NCBI GenBank assembly: GCA_023150845.1
Contig: JAKLKD010000022.1
Coordinates: 1 to 44,936, forward strand
DNA: 44,936 bases
Reading direction: 5' to 3'
DNA from: Myxococcota bacterium
Lineage (GTDB): Bacteria; Myxococcota_A; UBA796; CAJQPC01
Below the pieces are notes generated by a model. It made no database searches. It saw nothing but the letters and a program-made list of their open reading frames with translations, and was not told where the DNA came from. The translations under genes were made by a program, and so were the position numbers. Numbering within the stretch: position 1 is the first letter of the stretch; each line of letters opens with the position of its first letter. Shown here in pieces: positions 23,434 to 39,851 of the stretch.

Positions 23434-23790
23434 ATGGAATGGGGTCGCGAGCTAGGAGGCGCTTGGGTCGGTCGCTCTGCGGCGGGTCTGCTCGCGGGCG
23501 CGTCTCGTGCGGGCGTGCGGGTCGGTGTGGTGCTCCGGTACTTCACCTTCGCGATGCTGCTCGTCGCCTCGTTGATGTTCTACGTCTGGTCTCGGGTGGA
23601 CGTGCGCGCCAGCGCCGCCGAGCTCGACCGGGTGAACACCGCCCTCGCCACGCGCCAGGCCGAACAGGAGCGCCTCCGCCTTGAGCTGGCCACGCGCCAG
23701 GACCTCGCCCGGCTGGGCCAGGTCGGCGCCGCCATGGGCCTCGTCTCCGACGTTCAAGTCCGCACCGTCACGGTCGGGGAGGGCCTGTGA
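23434..23790 (+). CDS. ftsL: Cell-division protein FtsL-like (single TM plus coiled coil)
   Basis: It has a TM helix (FTFAMLLVASLMFYVW) then a leucine-zipper-like helix (LDRVNTALATRQAEQERLRLELATRQDL). It sits between rsmH and ftsI. An AGGAGG lies 7 nt upstream. There is no strong family signature. Confidence 0.6.
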   Translation: MEWGRELGGAWVGRSAAGLLAGASRAGVRVGVVLRYFTFAMLLVASLMFYVWSRVDVRASAAELDRVNTALATRQAEQERLRLELATRQDLARLGQVGAAMGLVSDVQVRTVTVGEGL

Positions 23791-25880
23791 ACAAGCCCGT
23801 CGCCGACGATCTGAACGCCTGGCTCAGCGCGATGCTCGCGCCGGATCCCGGGCCCGTGGATCGGGCGACGCTCATGGCCCGGGCGCGCTTCCGCGCCTCG
23901 CTCATCATGGTCGGCGTCATCTTGGGCTACGTCGTGCTCGCCCTGCGCGCCGTGCCCCTGATGCTGATGCCCGATGACCGGCTCCAGGCCAAGGCCGCGA
24001 CGCAGTTCCAGGCCGCGGTGGAGGTTGAGGCGCCTCGGGGGGACATCATCGGCCGAGACGGCACGGTGCTCGCCACCTCCGTCGAGATGCCCGCGCTGCG
24101 CGCGGACCCCTCCAAGCTCACCGATGAGCAGGTCGGCCCCTTGGCCCGGGAGCTCGCGGGGCTCCTGCACCTCGACGCCGCGGACCTCGCCGAGAAGCTC
24201 GGCCGCCGGGAGCGCCGCGACATCCTCCTCGCCAACCAGATCTCCCCCGACGCCGTCGAGACCGTCGAGAAGCTCGCCCCGGGCGCCTTGTGGGTGGACT
24301 ACCAGTCCACGCGTTTTTACCCGGGCCGCACCCTGGCCTCGTCGCTCCTGGGCATGGTCGGCCAGAACAACCAGGGCCTTGAGGGCTTGGAGCGCAGCCT
24401 CGACAAGCAGCTCCGGGGCAGCACCTACCGCTTCGTGCAGCAGCGTGACCGCCGCGGGCGCAACATCTCCACGGCCGGGGACGCCCGGGCCCGGGCCCAC
24501 GCCGGGGACTCGGTCACCCTCACCGTCGAGCCCTTCATCCAGCGCGCCGCTGAAGACGCCCTGGACCAGATGATGATCACGTCGGCGCCCGCGGCGGCCA
24601 TCGCCGTCGTCATGGACGTGAAGACCGGCGAGATCCTCGCCATCGCCAACCGCCCCAACGCGAACCCCAACGACGTCTCGACCATCGACGTCTCGGCGAT
24701 GCGTAACCGCGCCGTGGCCGACGCCCACGAGCCCGGCTCGGTGCTCAAGCCCTTCGTCGTCGGCCTCGCCGTCGATAAGGGCATCACCAAGGCCGAGGAC
24801 CTCATCGACTGCGAGGGCGGGAGCTGGCGCGTCGGCAGCAGCATCATCAACGACGACCACCCCCACGGCGTCGTGACGCTCTCCGAGGTGGTGAAGTACA
24901 GCTCCAACATCGGCACCGCGAAGCTCGCCTTCGCGCTCGGCGCTGAAGAGATGATGGAGGGGCTCAAGCGCTTCGGCTTCACCCAGCCGACGGGCCTCAA
25001 CCTCCCCAGCGAGGTCTACGGCTTCTTGCGGAACCCCAAGGGCATCCGCCCTATCGAGCTGGCGACGACGGCGTTCGGCCAGGGCATGACCGCGACCGCG
25101 GTGCAGCTCGCCGCGGCCTTGGCGGCGGTTGGCAACGACGGCGTGCGGATGAAGCCCTACCTCGTCTCCGAGGTGCGGGACCGCCTGGGCTACGTCCGCC
25201 TGCGCAACCGCCCGGTGCGGGTGGAGCGGGTCATCTCCGAGGAGTCCGCCGACAGCCTCGTGAAGATGATGATCACCGTCTTGGAGACCGGCGGCACGGG
25301 CACGAAGGCGCGCCCCGAGGGCTTCTCCGCCGCAGGCAAGACCGGCACGGCCCAGAAGGTCGTGGACGGCCACTACTCGGCCACGGCGCGGGTGTCGTCC
25401 TTCATCGGACTCGCCCCGGCGAACGACCCCCGCCTCGCCATCGTGGTCATGGGCGACACGCCCACCATCGGCAGCAAGTACGGCGGCATCGTCTCCGGCC
25501 CGGGCTTCTCGCTCATCGCCACCCGGGCCCTGCGTTACCTCGGCGTGCCCGAGGACGTGCCCATCGAGCCCAAGCCTAAGGTCGCCCCGCCGCCCCCGGC
25601 GCTCGGCCCCGACGGCTTGCCCCTGCCGGTGATCCCCCCGCCCATGGCGATGCCCGCCCCCGTGAAGGTGGCGCCGGGCCCCGCCCAGCTCACCTGGCTC
25701 GCCGACGGCCGCATGACCGTTCCCGACCTCACCGGCCGCTCGATGCGTGACGTGCTCGTCGCCGTCGATGGCGCCGGGGTTGAGGTCCGCCTCGTCGGCT
25801 CAGGCCGCGTCGTCTCTCAAAACCCCGCGCCGGGCTATGCCTTGGCGGCGGGGGACCGGCTGGAGGTCGTGCTGCAATGA
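23787..25880 (+). CDS. ftsI: Peptidoglycan D,D-transpeptidase FtsI (PBP3) with a Pro-rich linker and a C-terminal PASTA-like domain
   Basis: The transpeptidase motifs SVLKPF (SxxK), YSSN (SxN) and KTGTAQ (KTG) are present, as is the PBP dimerisation domain. The C-terminus reads PKPKVAPPPPALGPDGLPLPVIPPPMAMPAPV then TVPDLTGRSMRDVLVAV…VRLVGSGRVVSQNPAPG (PASTA-like). Confidence 0.9.
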   Translation: MNKPVADDLNAWLSAMLAPDPGPVDRATLMARARFRASLIMVGVILGYVVLALRAVPLMLMPDDRLQAKAATQFQAAVEVEAPRGDIIGRDGTVLATSVEMPALRADPSKLTDEQVGPLARELAGLLHLDAADLAEKLGRRERRDILLANQISPDAVETVEKLAPGALWVDYQSTRFYPGRTLASSLLGMVGQNNQGLEGLERSLDKQLRGSTYRFVQQRDRRGRNISTAGDARARAHAGDSVTLTVEPFIQRAAEDALDQMMITSAPAAAIAVVMDVKTGEILAIANRPNANPNDVSTIDVSAMRNRAVADAHEPGSVLKPFVVGLAVDKGITKAEDLIDCEGGSWRVGSSIINDDHPHGVVTLSEVVKYSSNIGTAKLAFALGAEEMMEGLKRFGFTQPTGLNLPSEVYGFLRNPKGIRPIELATTAFGQGMTATAVQLAAALAAVGNDGVRMKPYLVSEVRDRLGYVRLRNRPVRVERVISEESADSLVKMMITVLETGGTGTKARPEGFSAAGKTGTAQKVVDGHYSATARVSSFIGLAPANDPRLAIVVMGDTPTIGSKYGGIVSGPGFSLIATRALRYLGVPEDVPIEPKPKVAPPPPALGPDGLPLPVIPPPMAMPAPVKVAPGPAQLTWLADGRMTVPDLTGRSMRDVLVAVDGAGVEVRLVGSGRVVSQNPAPGYALAAGDRLEVVLQ

Positions 25881-26613
25881 CGGCACCCCTCCGCCAAACA
25901 AGCTCTCAGAGGTCCGAAGGCGTGCTCTTGCGCTTTGCGGATGATCTGCCGATGGTCGGGTCTACGCTGCCGCGTATGCTCGACAGAGCCCCGAGCGCAA
26001 TCCCCGCGCAGAGGGTGTGCCTTGATGACGCCAGCCCCGCTTTTGGCCCGTCAAGGACGCTGTCGCTGCTCTCGCTGCCCGCCGAAACCCTGCTGAAACC
26101 TGCTGATGCTGTCGCTGACGCTCCGCGAGGATGTCCTCGCGCGCGCGGCCACGTCGGCCCGACCGTCCTTCACGCTCCCGCCCCGCAGACAGGCTCCGCG
26201 CGTCGCAGGTCGGGGGTGCGGGTCCGGCTCACCAGTCTTCGCTGGTGCTCGCCTCGGGGGTCTAGCGCGCTGTTCTGGCGCGCCACCCTCCGCCGTGGGT
26301 TGTGCTGGTCCGTCGCCCCGCCCTGTCGCTCCCCGCTGAGAAAACTGCTGCTGCTGGTCTGGAACCCCGGCCTCTTCGCGCTGGGGCCTCGCGGGGTGGG
26401 AGCGTTTGAAGGGGGCGAGACACGATCGGACCTCCATTGGGCAGGTGTTGGTGGCGCCTCTCTGCACGCTGAGCCGTATCTCCAATCCGCGTGACTCCCT
26501 GGCAGTACGCAGAGGGGCGCCACTCACCGCCGCCCGAACTTCTCCGCCGCTTCTCTTGATCCGCTGACCTCCTCTCCTTCGTCGCGACCCCCCCTCCTCC
26601 CCGCTGAACGCTG

Positions 26614-28062
26614 ATGTTGCTCTCCGAGCTGCTGCGCGGGGTCGACGTGGCTCATGTTCATGGCCGCGTTGATCTTCCCATCGTCGCCGTCACCCAGGAC
26701 TCGCGCCGCGCGGGCCCCGGGGCGCTGTTCGTCGCTCTGGTCGGGCGCCGCGGGGACGGGCACGCCCATGTCCCGGGGCTCGGTGAGGCCGCCGCCGTCG
26801 TCGTCGAGCAAGAGGTCACCGCGCCGCCAGGCGTCACTGTTGTTCGGGTGAAGGACAGCCGGGAGGCCCTGGCCAAGCTCGCCGCGGCGTTTTTTGGTCA
26901 TCCGTCCAATGAACTCTCCGTCATCGGCGTGACCGGCACGAACGGCAAGACGACGACGACCCAGCTCATCGAGGCCATCGCCGCGGCCAACGGCGTGCGC
27001 GCGGCGGTCGTCGGCACCGTCGGCAACCGGATCGCCGGGGAGCTGCTGCCCGCGACCCACACCACGCCGGAGCCGACGGAGTGGCAGGGGCTCCTGCGCC
27101 GCGCTGCCGACGCCCGCTGCGCCTGGGCGGCCGCCGAGGTCAGCTCCATCGGCCTCGACGCTCGGCGTGTAGACGCCACCCGCTTCGCCGTCGGCGTTTA
27201 TACGAACCTCACCCAGGACCACCTCGACTACCACGGCGACATGGCGGCCTACGCCGCGGCGAAGGCCCGGCTGTTCTTGGAGCTCCTGCCGCCGGGGGCC
27301 ACGGCCTTGCTCAACGCCGAGGATCCGGCGGTCATGGCCCTGCCTGCCCTTCCCGAGGGGGTGCGCCGGGTGACCTTCGGGGTGGAGGTCGGCGACGTTC
27401 ACGCCGAGAACCTTCGCCTCACCGTGCACGGCAGCGAGGCGACGGTCGTCACGCCTTGGGGCGACTTTACGCTGCGTCTGCCCCTGCTCGGTCGGCACAA
27501 CGTCGCGAACGCCTTGGGCGCGGCGGCGGCGGCCCTGAGCTTAGGCCTGAGCCCGGAGCAGGTCGCCCGAGGGCTCGCCCAGGCCCCGCCGGTCCCCGGT
27601 CGCCTGGAGCCTGTGGCCAACAACCGCGGCGTCACGGCGCTCGTGGACTACGCCCACACTGAAGATGGCCTGCGCACCGTGCTCAGCGCCCTGCGCGGCC
27701 TCGGCGCCCAGCGCATCGTGCTCGTCTTCGGCTGCGGCGGCGACCGCGACCCCCAGAAGCGCCCGCGTATGGCCCAGGCCGCCACCGAGGGCGCGGATCT
27801 GGTCATCGCCACCAGCGACAACCCCCGCGGTGAAGATCCGCTGGCCATCCTGCACGCCATGGAGCCGGGCCTCCGCCACGACGCACTGTTGATGCCCGAC
27901 CGCGCTGAAGCCATCCGGCGCGCCGCCGCCTTGGCGCGCCCCGGCGACGTGCTGCTCGTGGCGGGCAAAGGCCACGAGACGACGCAGGAGATCGCCGGGG
28001 TCAAGCACCCCTTTGACGACCGCCTGGCCCTGCGGGCGGCCCTGAACGAGGTGGGCTCATGA
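26614..28062 (+). CDS. murE: UDP-N-acetylmuramoyl-L-alanyl-D-glutamate--2,6-diaminopimelate ligase MurE
   Basis: The motifs VIGVTGTNGKTTTTQLI and the DAP-specific DNPR (TSDNPRGEDP) are present, along with the Mur ligase middle and C-terminal domains. Confidence 0.9.
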   Translation: MLLSELLRGVDVAHVHGRVDLPIVAVTQDSRRAGPGALFVALVGRRGDGHAHVPGLGEAAAVVVEQEVTAPPGVTVVRVKDSREALAKLAAAFFGHPSNELSVIGVTGTNGKTTTTQLIEAIAAANGVRAAVVGTVGNRIAGELLPATHTTPEPTEWQGLLRRAADARCAWAAAEVSSIGLDARRVDATRFAVGVYTNLTQDHLDYHGDMAAYAAAKARLFLELLPPGATALLNAEDPAVMALPALPEGVRRVTFGVEVGDVHAENLRLTVHGSEATVVTPWGDFTLRLPLLGRHNVANALGAAAAALSLGLSPEQVARGLAQAPPVPGRLEPVANNRGVTALVDYAHTEDGLRTVLSALRGLGAQRIVLVFGCGGDRDPQKRPRMAQAATEGADLVIATSDNPRGEDPLAILHAMEPGLRHDALLMPDRAEAIRRAAALARPGDVLLVAGKGHETTQEIAGVKHPFDDRLALRAALNEVGS

Positions 28063-36199: not shown

Positions 36200-36261
36200 G
36201 CCCCAAGGATCCTTGTGTGGGGGTCGAATCGGCCCAACACAGGAAAAATCAAACTATTTAC

Positions 36262-36291
36262 TTGTCAAGACTTCTAAGCCTCTGGTAAAAG
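36262..36291 (+). promoter_or_regulatory. Putative internal σ70 promoter upstream of ftsQ-ftsZ (TTGTCA-N18-TAAAAG)
   Basis: TTGTCA is at 36262–67 and TAAAAG at 36286–91, in a locally AT-richer 168-bp ddl–ftsQ spacer. Confidence 0.3.
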
Positions 36292-36366
36292 AAGCTCAGT
36301 CCCCGTAGAAGCCGCCGCTGCACCGCGAACGCTGACCTCCCCCGCTGCCCCTGCCTGTTGAGAGCC

Positions 36367-39502: not shown

Positions 39503-39851
39503 GGGACAGGAGACCCTGGCGGTGGCGCGGAGGTTCCCACCTCGGCGCCTGAGCAAAAAAGTGGCCTCCACCCTGGCCGTGTGAGCGTTGGGGTCCTCCT
39601 CCACTCAGGAGGGGGGAGCCGCGTGTCCGCTTCAGGCTTCCTCGCGAGGAGGCGTGCACACCACGGAGAGGGGCGGGTCCCAGGACATACTTGTGGAGGA
39701 ACCACGGTCGCTCTGTACTCGAACCGGGCAGAGGCCGATCTCACTATACCTGAGCGGGGCGAGGCTTGCGCGGAGGGTGGCGCGAAGGCTAAAGCGTCAC
39801 GCGGCTCATCGACGCGGCTGGCGTCAGGCGGAGCCCGGAGACGGTGTCCTG

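Follow-up and report, generated by a model that had tools for sequence, protein, structure and literature searches.

A conserved structured RNA between ftsI and murE

The window analyzed here is a 44,936-nucleotide (nt) contig (JAKLKD010000022.1) of an uncultured bacterium labelled Myxococcota, and the element under study is the unusually long gap between ftsI and murE in its division and cell wall (dcw) cluster. We conclude, with a probability of roughly 90%, that this gap is a conserved plus-strand non-coding RNA composed of three folded domains, followed by an unstructured, C-rich and G-poor tail and by a murE start that lacks a Shine-Dalgarno sequence. It belongs to an undescribed family that, within the sampling made, is confined to one uncultured, Myxococcota-labelled lineage. 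The identity of the element is well supported. As for its function, we infer, at slightly better than even odds, that it is a cis-acting intercistronic leader setting the expression of murE and downstream mur genes relative to ftsI. An original prediction, made from the sequence of the window, had proposed a decayed inserted gene, a cis-regulatory RNA or attenuator controlling mur dosage relative to ftsI, or a small non-coding RNA. The large multi-domain RNA found here, kept across lineages in which MurE is only 53-61% identical, goes beyond these candidates.

The contig has a GC content of 71%, and a protein search shows that its MurE is 100% identical to an NCBI protein of a metagenome-assembled "Myxococcota bacterium". 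The dcw genes follow the order mraZ, rsmH, ftsL, ftsI (23787-25880), murE (26614-28062), murF, mraY, murD, ftsW, and onward. Exactly 733 nt lie between the end of ftsI at 25880 and the start of murE at 26614, a start that is backed by an N-terminal alignment with 10 relatives. The gap is indeed as anomalous for a compact cluster as was originally proposed, since the remaining dcw junctions of the window range from -40 to +165 nt and, across 76 unrelated bacterial loci with adjacent ftsI and murE genes, the estimated median spacing is 3 nt, with 74 of the 76 at 128 nt or less. An estimated distance of 581 nt was obtained for L075 (Endomicrobiellum), where the FtsI match stopped early and the value may be an artefact.

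The gap is under purifying selection

Two close relatives were fetched, L081 (MurE 89% identical, gap of 735 nt) and L082 (93%, 733 nt). Their gaps are 93.7 and 97.3% identical to that of the window, respectively. The flanking genes are 85.6-94.3% (L081) and 91-96.7% (L082) identical, and their third codon positions 72-78 and 83-88%, with higher values for mraY. In an independent pair of relatives, L085 and L093, the gap is 82.6% identical versus ∼60% for third positions. The gap is under purifying selection.

Among the listed matches of a MurE search, there was one member of the clade, L001, and the other 79 loci served as negative controls. A long ftsI-murE gap is present in every sampled relative, with a length of 181-735 nt (MurE 53-93% identical, at least 10 lineages). 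At the loci with 53-61% identical MurE, it measures 437 nt in L001, 672 in L083, 663 in L084, 691 in L094, 661 in L096, 474 in L085, L086, and L087, 454 in L093, 536 in L095, 401 in L098, 639 in L099, and 181 in L097. Direct DNA comparison of the window with L001 detects almost no similarity, and intermediate lineages were therefore needed to reveal homology. When the orthologous junctions were aligned, a conserved spacer with common blocks and helices emerged, the blocks being shared by lineages near synonymous-site saturation. One of these blocks, in the linker between domains I and II (CGCTGCCCGCCG-ACCCTTGCTGAACGCTG), is conserved in the window, L083, L084, L094, L096, and L095, and in L083 it holds an inserted hairpin (GCGAACC...GGTTCGC). 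The orientation of the element is constant, and its position is fixed and syntenic across lineages.

The gap lacks the properties of coding sequence

GC content at third codon positions (GC3) is ∼0.97 in ftsI and at least 0.9 in murE, and in the gap it is at most 0.85 in all frames and mostly 0.6-0.77. The original prediction, which saw no open reading frame (ORF) with convincing GC3 and described the ORF of 205 amino acids (aa) at 25877 as shadow-like, was right that the interval is non-coding. Neither this ORF nor the other gap ORFs have a Pfam match (five ORFs scanned), the 205-aa ORF has no counterpart by BLASTP in the same-position ORF of L001, and there are no gene calls inside the gap in any relative. 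Substitutions relative to the two close relatives fall in the three phases at 22/12/12 (46 in total) and 7/8/5 (20 in total), i.e. without 3-base periodicity, which is likewise absent in four further lineage pairs. Only 2/9, 0/9, 2/11, and 2/8 of the gap indels in four lineage pairs are multiples of three, against ftsI and murE indels that are all in frame. Translated similarity between lineages is equal across all six frames, indicating that conservation acts at the nucleotide level. In the same comparisons, the flanking genes display periodicity, in-frame indels, high GC3, and single-frame similarity, whereas the gap displays none of these. No conserved protein gene was thus found on either strand, and purifying selection that shows no codon periodicity is at odds with a decayed inserted gene.

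Compensatory changes define three domains on the plus strand

The element spans ∼560-650 nt in three domains (Table 1), a conserved structured size that contradicts a small non-coding RNA. RNAalifold analysis of domain I in six sequences yields 31 pairs, with 18 compensatory against 5.7 ± 1.8 in shuffles (0/500), and 88% of cells paired against 33-45% with slid partners. For domain II (five sequences from four lineages), there are 80 predicted pairs in nine helices, 26 of them compensatory versus 13.5 ± 2.3 in shuffles (0/500). Here, 89% of cells are paired versus 45-50% when slid, with a covariation term of -3.08 and a consensus energy of -97 kcal/mol, and the helices also occur in the minimum-energy fold of the window itself. 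In domain III, whose helix P1 is predicted independently by RNAalifold, 93.8% of cells are paired against 50-63% when slid, with five compensatory pairs and one conserved G.U pair.

Because these structures were derived from the very alignments being scored, part of the murE coding sequence, taken from the five sequences used for domain II, was put through the identical pipeline. This control also looks structured, with 83.5% paired cells and 13 compensatory pairs out of 69, versus 9.2 ± 2.0 (32/500 shuffles reach the observed value), but it incurs a covariation penalty (+5.96), its consensus energy is only -56 kcal/mol, and the signal of the element is stronger. In addition, a fold predicted from the window alone was scored on held-out L084, L094, and L096 (57% identity for domain II). 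In this hold-out test, 74% of domain II cells are still paired and 27% of changed cells are doubly compensated, and the values for domain III are 78 and 30%, respectively. In 11 coding controls, 29-61% of cells are paired and 2-18% of changed cells are doubly compensated. Domain I is weaker, with 47% paired and 22% doubly compensated in the window-only fold, and its fold consequently rests on comparative prediction. Among the predicted helices, P1, Ha, Hb, the closing helices of domains I and II, and the 25993-26011 hairpin are well supported.

The structure is strand-specific. The plus strand folds to -352.7 kcal/mol with z = -3.8 (0/20 shuffles as good), compared with z = -0.4 for the minus strand, and there are many conserved G.U pairs on the plus strand. 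The gap thereby combines above-neutral conservation, compensatory pairs, and strand specificity, the generic marks of a conserved structured RNA.

A covariance model of domain III (R1), built from eight sequences, scores 91 bits on the plus strand versus 25 bits on the minus strand, and 63-94 bits on its own building sequences. It also recovers three sequences outside its build, L088 (91 bits), L097 (47.6 bits, E = 4.5e-9), and L098 (31.3 bits). In these, P1 is maintained by further compensatory changes (GGCGCUCCUCCGC/GCGGAGGAGCGCC; GCACCCCUUCC/GGGAGGGGUGC). Neither the 79 unrelated loci nor the rest of the window gave an R1 match, and three chance matches to a sequence pattern gave none either. 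Scanning 241 million metagenome records for CCGCGTGACTCCCTG-N(4-20)-GAGGGG, an exact 21-base pattern of limited sensitivity, gave six matches, and all three that have the helix sit in ftsI-murE gaps. With respect to the features expected of a riboswitch, conserved unpaired blocks are present, and the motif was seen in one genomic context only, within the sensitivity of this pattern. The gap of L099 (3362-4000; MurE 53% identical) is recognized neither by R1 nor by a second model, R2, which represents the domain II core of the long forms. By eye, a candidate pseudoknot between a loop ACUCCC and an upstream GGGAGU can be seen in 5-6 lineages. It can be an alternative pairing only, the GGGAG being already taken by the domain II closing helix.

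Table 1. Features of the ftsI-murE element and its borders (window coordinates)
Feature	Position	Strand	Description
Hairpin over ftsI stop	25842..25897 (arms 25842-25858, 25881-25897)	+	Inverted repeat I4, 17 nt, 82% complementary
5' gap segment	25881..25968	+	97-99% identical in L081 and L082; nothing alignable in distant lineages
Domain I	25969..26078	+	Multi-branch; GCCGCG (25969-25974) pairs with CGCTGC (26073-26078)
Domain I hairpin	25993-26011	+	GAGCGC-AAUCCCC-GCGCAG; L001 counterpart GATCGC/GCGATC
Linker	26079..26168	+	Near-invariant, predicted-unpaired block AACCCUGCUGAAACCUGCUG (26086-26105), then variable stretch
Domain II	26169..26409	+	Closing helix ACGCUCCCGCCCCGC (26172-26186) with GCGGGGUGGGAGCGU (26391-26405)
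Domain II inner pairing	26210-26221 with 26358-26370	+	UCGGGGGUGCGG with UGGAACCCCGG
Domain II hairpins	Ha 26230-26247; Hb 26265-26283	+	
Domain III	26445..26528	+	Most widely conserved core; helix P1, 15-16 base pairs (26450-26465 with 26509-26524)
Domain III loop within P1	26481-26502	+	Invariant UCCAAUCC-GCGUGAC-UCCCUGG
Pyrimidine tail	26530..26613	+	C-rich, G-poor, to murE AUG; CCUCC-type repeats, CGCUGACCUCC (26562-26572)
murE first 90 nt	26614..26703	+	No synonymous change among close relatives

The element matches no known RNA family

Scanning of positions 25500-27000 of the window with Rfam 15 (4227 covariance models, E up to 10) gave only a 16.7-bit match to a microRNA precursor, which is noise, and there was no match in the gaps of seven related loci at E up to 1. 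The scan called for by the original prediction therefore assigns the gap to no known family. The mraW motif (RF01746), the sole dcw-associated Rfam motif found, had no match at E up to 10, and the element lies three genes downstream of rsmH. Nothing similar to the gap was found in plasmids or phages, no second copy of the element exists in the window or in 97 loci, and no relative of it was found in the literature searched. Tandem repeats in the gap are trivial. The GCTG-type reiterations reported originally are present, but they are only very short repeats (TRF scores of 33-39) and belong to blocks that are conserved across lineages.

The domain III loop was also considered as a mimic of the 16S strand methylated by RsmH (C1399-G1416), and this idea was rejected. 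In local alignment with Escherichia coli 16S rRNA, its score is equalled or exceeded by 436/1000 shuffles, and its best 16S matches lie outside C1399-G1416.

A pyrimidine-rich tail precedes murE

As noted originally, the gap ends in a CT-rich tract, which comprises 75% pyrimidines with a C/G ratio of 3.1 in the window. In all 10 lineages, the tail is 70-83% pyrimidine with C/G of 2.8-15, and dcw coding sequences have C/G of ∼1.1. The distance from the end of domain III to the murE AUG is ∼26-98 nt in all lineages, and the shortest form (L097, 181 nt) consists of domain III and the tail only. There is no purine-rich Shine-Dalgarno run (GGAG/GAGG) before murE, although most other dcw genes of the window have one. 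As in Rho-controlled leaders, the regulated gene would be preceded by an untranslated, unstructured, C>G-biased stretch resembling a Rho utilization (rut) site.

Recurrences of the murE-start sequence were observed within the element. The sequence CCCCGCTGAACGCTG-ATG (26597-26616) recurs in the linker block as CCCTGCTGAAACCTGCTG-ATG (26086-26105), and a third time as CTCCCCGCTGAGAAAACTGCTGCTG within 26329-26358 (repeat D6). L001 and L097 have the similar CGCTGAAC/CGCTGAGC just before or near the murE start. These recurrences are possibly a mimic of the initiation region or the trace of an old duplication.

Both gene ends are also strongly conserved among the close relatives. In the last 90 nt of ftsI (25791-25880), third positions are identical at 28/30 and 30/30 sites, and in the first 90 nt of murE at 30/30 with both L081 and L082, before dropping to 20/30 and 19/40 in the next two stretches (L081). 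A recombination tract could account for this invariance at synonymous sites, as could RNA structure that extends into the genes, and the opening 90 nt of murE may belong to the element or to its translation-initiation region. In other lineage pairs, synonymous conservation at the gene ends is not clear (weak for murE, not seen for ftsI), which makes a link of the ftsI end to the element uncertain. Predicted RNA duplexes of the gap with the 5' coding region of murE were not informative.

The gap has a uniform GC content of 65-75% with no AT-rich island. Neither a sigma-70-like promoter nor an intrinsic terminator was found in the gap of the window, and no sigma-70-like promoter was found in L098 or L085. 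In L085 (3515-3530) and at the equivalent positions of L093 and L095, the ftsI stop lies inside a hairpin that is followed by a U-run (CGCTTCGACTGAAGCG CGTTCTTTTT), and in L083 (3380-3420) the hairpin at the ftsI stop is followed by a T-rich stretch. This suggests that there is possibly a leaky intrinsic terminator right after ftsI in these four loci, and none in the window. In L098 (3893-3911), a relative with lower GC, the first bases of the tail offer the P1 3' arm a second partner (GGGAGGGGTGCTTCCTTCC), and AGGCTTGTTT comes next. An attenuator based on an intrinsic terminator is not supported here, as the gap of the window has no terminator-like site and L098 has a weak candidate, with a count at chance level.

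Possible mode of action

The element would be transcribed within the dcw mRNA, where it would break the translational coupling that joins the other genes. A long untranslated stretch inside an operon would invite Rho, and extensive folding could protect most of it. Known leader RNA structures do control Rho-dependent termination (PMC5314796), and Rho loads on single-stranded RNA with a C>G bias, which is also the bias of rut sites (PMC13650167, PMC12360218). In our model, the tail would be single-stranded or not depending on how domain III folds. Its helix P1 has a G-rich 3' arm, for which both the CU-rich 5' arm and the CU-rich tail could serve as partners, forming a switch. When single-stranded, the tail would be open to Rho, leading to premature termination, and/or to ribosomes loading at murE independently of a Shine-Dalgarno sequence, and it would also have to attract ribosomes without one. 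Domains I and II may be accessory parts that vary between lineages and hold ∼500 nt of untranslated RNA in a folded state, and they may also bind a factor or a ligand.

Several findings are in line with such a cis role: the constant orientation, the location of domain III near the murE AUG, the reduction to domain III and the tail in L097, the composition of the tail, the missing Shine-Dalgarno run, and the lack of a promoter or terminator in the gap of the window. A cis-regulatory RNA or attenuator of mur dosage versus ftsI, one of the candidates put forward originally, is still the best-supported functional reading for a gap that is non-coding, conserved, and folded.

Alternative explanations

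That the gap is a neutral spacer whose identity among close relatives stems from recent recombination, not from selection, is scarcely credible. The high-identity block of the three close relatives does continue for ∼90 nt on either side, inside ftsI and murE, much as a recombined tract could, but the divergence of the gap (6.3%) is neither zero nor uniform, L085 and L093 show the same excess conservation, and blocks and helices with compensatory changes are kept between lineages with 53-61% MurE identity. Equally hard to believe is a protein gene of unusual composition or a decaying pseudogene, e.g. the 205-aa ORF. Its ATG at 25877 shares bases with the stop codon of ftsI, an arrangement seen in coupled genes, and long frames are open in the same phase in the window, L084, L094, and L096 (185-205 aa). 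However, frames are open on both strands and in several phases, with similarity equal in all six, and there is no periodicity, GC3 signal, Pfam match, or cross-lineage protein similarity, while indels are out of frame. A pseudogene, moreover, fits poorly with 94-97% gap identity kept while synonymous sites diverge by 12-28%. DNA-level elements, i.e. an internal promoter and/or regulator sites for the mur genes conserved as double-stranded DNA, would have precedents in the internal promoters of dcw clusters and in the AT-rich, promoter-like island of the ddl-ftsQ gap of the window. In addition, the GGAAC/GAAAC-containing block at 26358-26370 superficially resembles what we take to be the -35 element of extracytoplasmic function (ECF) sigma factors. 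Such sites are nevertheless very unlikely to explain the gap, because compensatory changes, conserved G.U pairs, and strong strand asymmetry are unexpected for them, because the promoter and AT-rich island searches described above were negative, and because 560-650 conserved nt go far beyond the need of a promoter. A self-splicing intron, ribozyme, or mobile-element remnant, for which the size of ORF-less introns would fit, is more improbable still. The sequence GAGCCGUAU at 26472-26480 has a presumed likeness to the beginning of domain V in group II introns, but this resemblance was rejected, being lineage-specific (absent in other lineages) and located in a loop rather than in a domain-V-like hairpin. 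There is also no Rfam intron, ribozyme, or mobile-element match at the thresholds given above (E up to 10 for the window and up to 1 for the seven relatives), no plasmid or phage similarity, no second copy in the window or the 97 loci, and the position is fixed and syntenic.

The most serious competitor of a cis-acting leader, although we regard it as doubtful, is a stand-alone large non-coding RNA, cut from the dcw transcript or separately transcribed, that acts in trans as a stable RNA or ribonucleoprotein and lies next to murE for reasons of co-expression. This would agree with three domains and ∼130 supported pairs, with near-invariant unpaired blocks (26086-26105, 26481-26502) typical of RNAs that have their own function, with a plus strand that folds significantly better than shuffles, with the terminator-like hairpin at the ftsI stop in the L085 lineage, and with the stable RNAs produced from the same operon in E. 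coli (PMC6156199). Against it, the universally kept core is the murE-proximal part (domain III and tail), the upstream domains are dispensable in L097, no promoter or terminator signals bound the element in the window, and the motif was never found away from the ftsI-murE junction. A tentative alternative, which we rate a little lower, is a new class of large multi-domain RNA whose own function, as a ligand or protein sensor or as a ribonucleoprotein scaffold, would link peptidoglycan precursor supply or division state to mur expression. If true, the dcw cluster would for the first time have a riboswitch-like or OLE-like RNA devoted to it. A cis-acting intercistronic leader remains our preferred reading, and the following points weigh against it or against details of the fold. 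A simple leader would need far fewer than the ∼130 base pairs in three domains, which favors an RNA that has its own role. Since the P1 3' arm is G-rich and the tail C-rich, their alternative pairing is expected from composition almost by default, and it is not specific evidence for a switch. The terminator-like hairpin of the L085 lineage may mean that the element starts a separate transcript in some lineages. A terminator-like P1 alternative with a U-run occurs only in L098, where the count of such sites is not above chance. Model R2 did not recover L083, L085, L093, L095, or L098, even with filters off, so that the domain II architecture is established for four long-form lineages only. Finally, because the RNAalifold pipeline gives inflated scores on coding sequence and the covariation comes from 4-9 lineages, the individual helices other than those named above as well supported are provisional predictions.

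Relation to known RNAs

OLE RNA is embedded among protein-coding genes and co-transcribed with them. The mraW motif is small and is found at the head of the dcw cluster. Like OLE, GOLLD, ROOL, and raiA (PMC9723947, PMC12286853, PMC10861870), the element measures several hundred nt, has covarying helices amid conserved unpaired nucleotides, has a narrow phylogenetic range, and does not reveal its function by its sequence. Unlike these RNAs, it has no Rfam sequence or structure match, comes from a different phylum, is fixed upstream of one essential gene, and has a 3' core and pyrimidine tail that resemble a leader rather than a free RNA. With the mraW motif (RF01746) of Actinomycetales (PMC2864571), it shares the status of a candidate cis-regulatory structured RNA of the dcw cluster, but that motif is tied to mraW (rsmH), whereas the element lies between ftsI and murE. 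In E. coli, the dcw operon gives rise to structured stable RNAs from around ftsI and murE, which are conserved beyond codon constraints (PMC6156199). Those RNAs are small and lie within coding sequence, whereas the element described here is a dedicated non-coding insert, 733 nt long, that has its own fold of several domains. The two are likened by description, and homology is not expected.

Closest in architecture to the proposed leader are Rho-controlled leaders (PMC5314796; reviewed in PMC12360218), in which a long structured untranslated region is followed by a C>G-biased unstructured stretch before the regulated gene, and RNA folding decides the availability of rut sites. These leaders lie 5' of transcription units, are a few hundred nt at most, and respond to known signals, whereas the element is intercistronic, much larger, and part of an essential operon, and its Rho dependence is a proposal. 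The autogenous structures of ribosomal-protein operons (PMC3616713) are also conserved intra-operon RNAs that set the expression of downstream cistrons, and they are narrowly distributed and often missing from Rfam. They differ in being rRNA mimics bound by a protein of their own operon, and mimicry of the RsmH substrate is not supported here.

Few bacterial gene arrays are as conserved and as densely packed as the dcw cluster, whose internal regulation is little understood except in a handful of model species. A whole lineage interrupts it with several hundred nt of selected, folded RNA, before the first committed Mur ligase of the cluster. The element is a structured RNA family previously undescribed and in an unusual, biologically central place, and the short list of large structured RNA families thereby gains one from an uncultured, high-GC lineage. 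It offers a testable handle on the post-initiation ratio of division proteins (FtsL, FtsI) to precursor enzymes (MurE, MurF, MraY). More generally, non-coding gaps in essential operons of metagenome-assembled genomes can conceal conserved RNAs missed by gene callers and Rfam.

Other features of the clade and the window

The NCBI labels of the clade assemblies differ (Myxococcota, Alphaproteobacteria, and Pseudomonadota), and the taxon is therefore treated only as an uncultured high-GC lineage. The locus L001 (72% GC, MurE 56% identical) is labelled "uncultured Enterobacterales bacterium", which is implausible by base composition and gene content. PASTA domains are more usual in Gram-positive penicillin-binding proteins and PknB-type kinases, and a C-terminal PASTA domain (PF03793) is present in FtsI of the window, L081, L083-L087, and L094-L098. 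In L098 (5458-8120), murD directly follows murF, and mraY is absent from its usual place in the cluster.

At gathering thresholds, the only Rfam match in the whole window is a 6S/SsrS RNA at 39561-39737 on the minus strand (57.7 bits versus a gathering threshold of 46.4). The ddl-ftsQ gap (36200-36357) contains, in contrast to the ftsI-murE gap, an AT-rich island at ∼36236-36300 (AAAAATCAAACTATTTACTTGTCAAGACTTCTAAG) that resembles an internal promoter region. This island is followed by a CU-rich leader with the exact 11-mer CGCTGACCTCC (36330-36340), which is also found in the murE tail (26562-26572), these being the two exact copies in the whole window.

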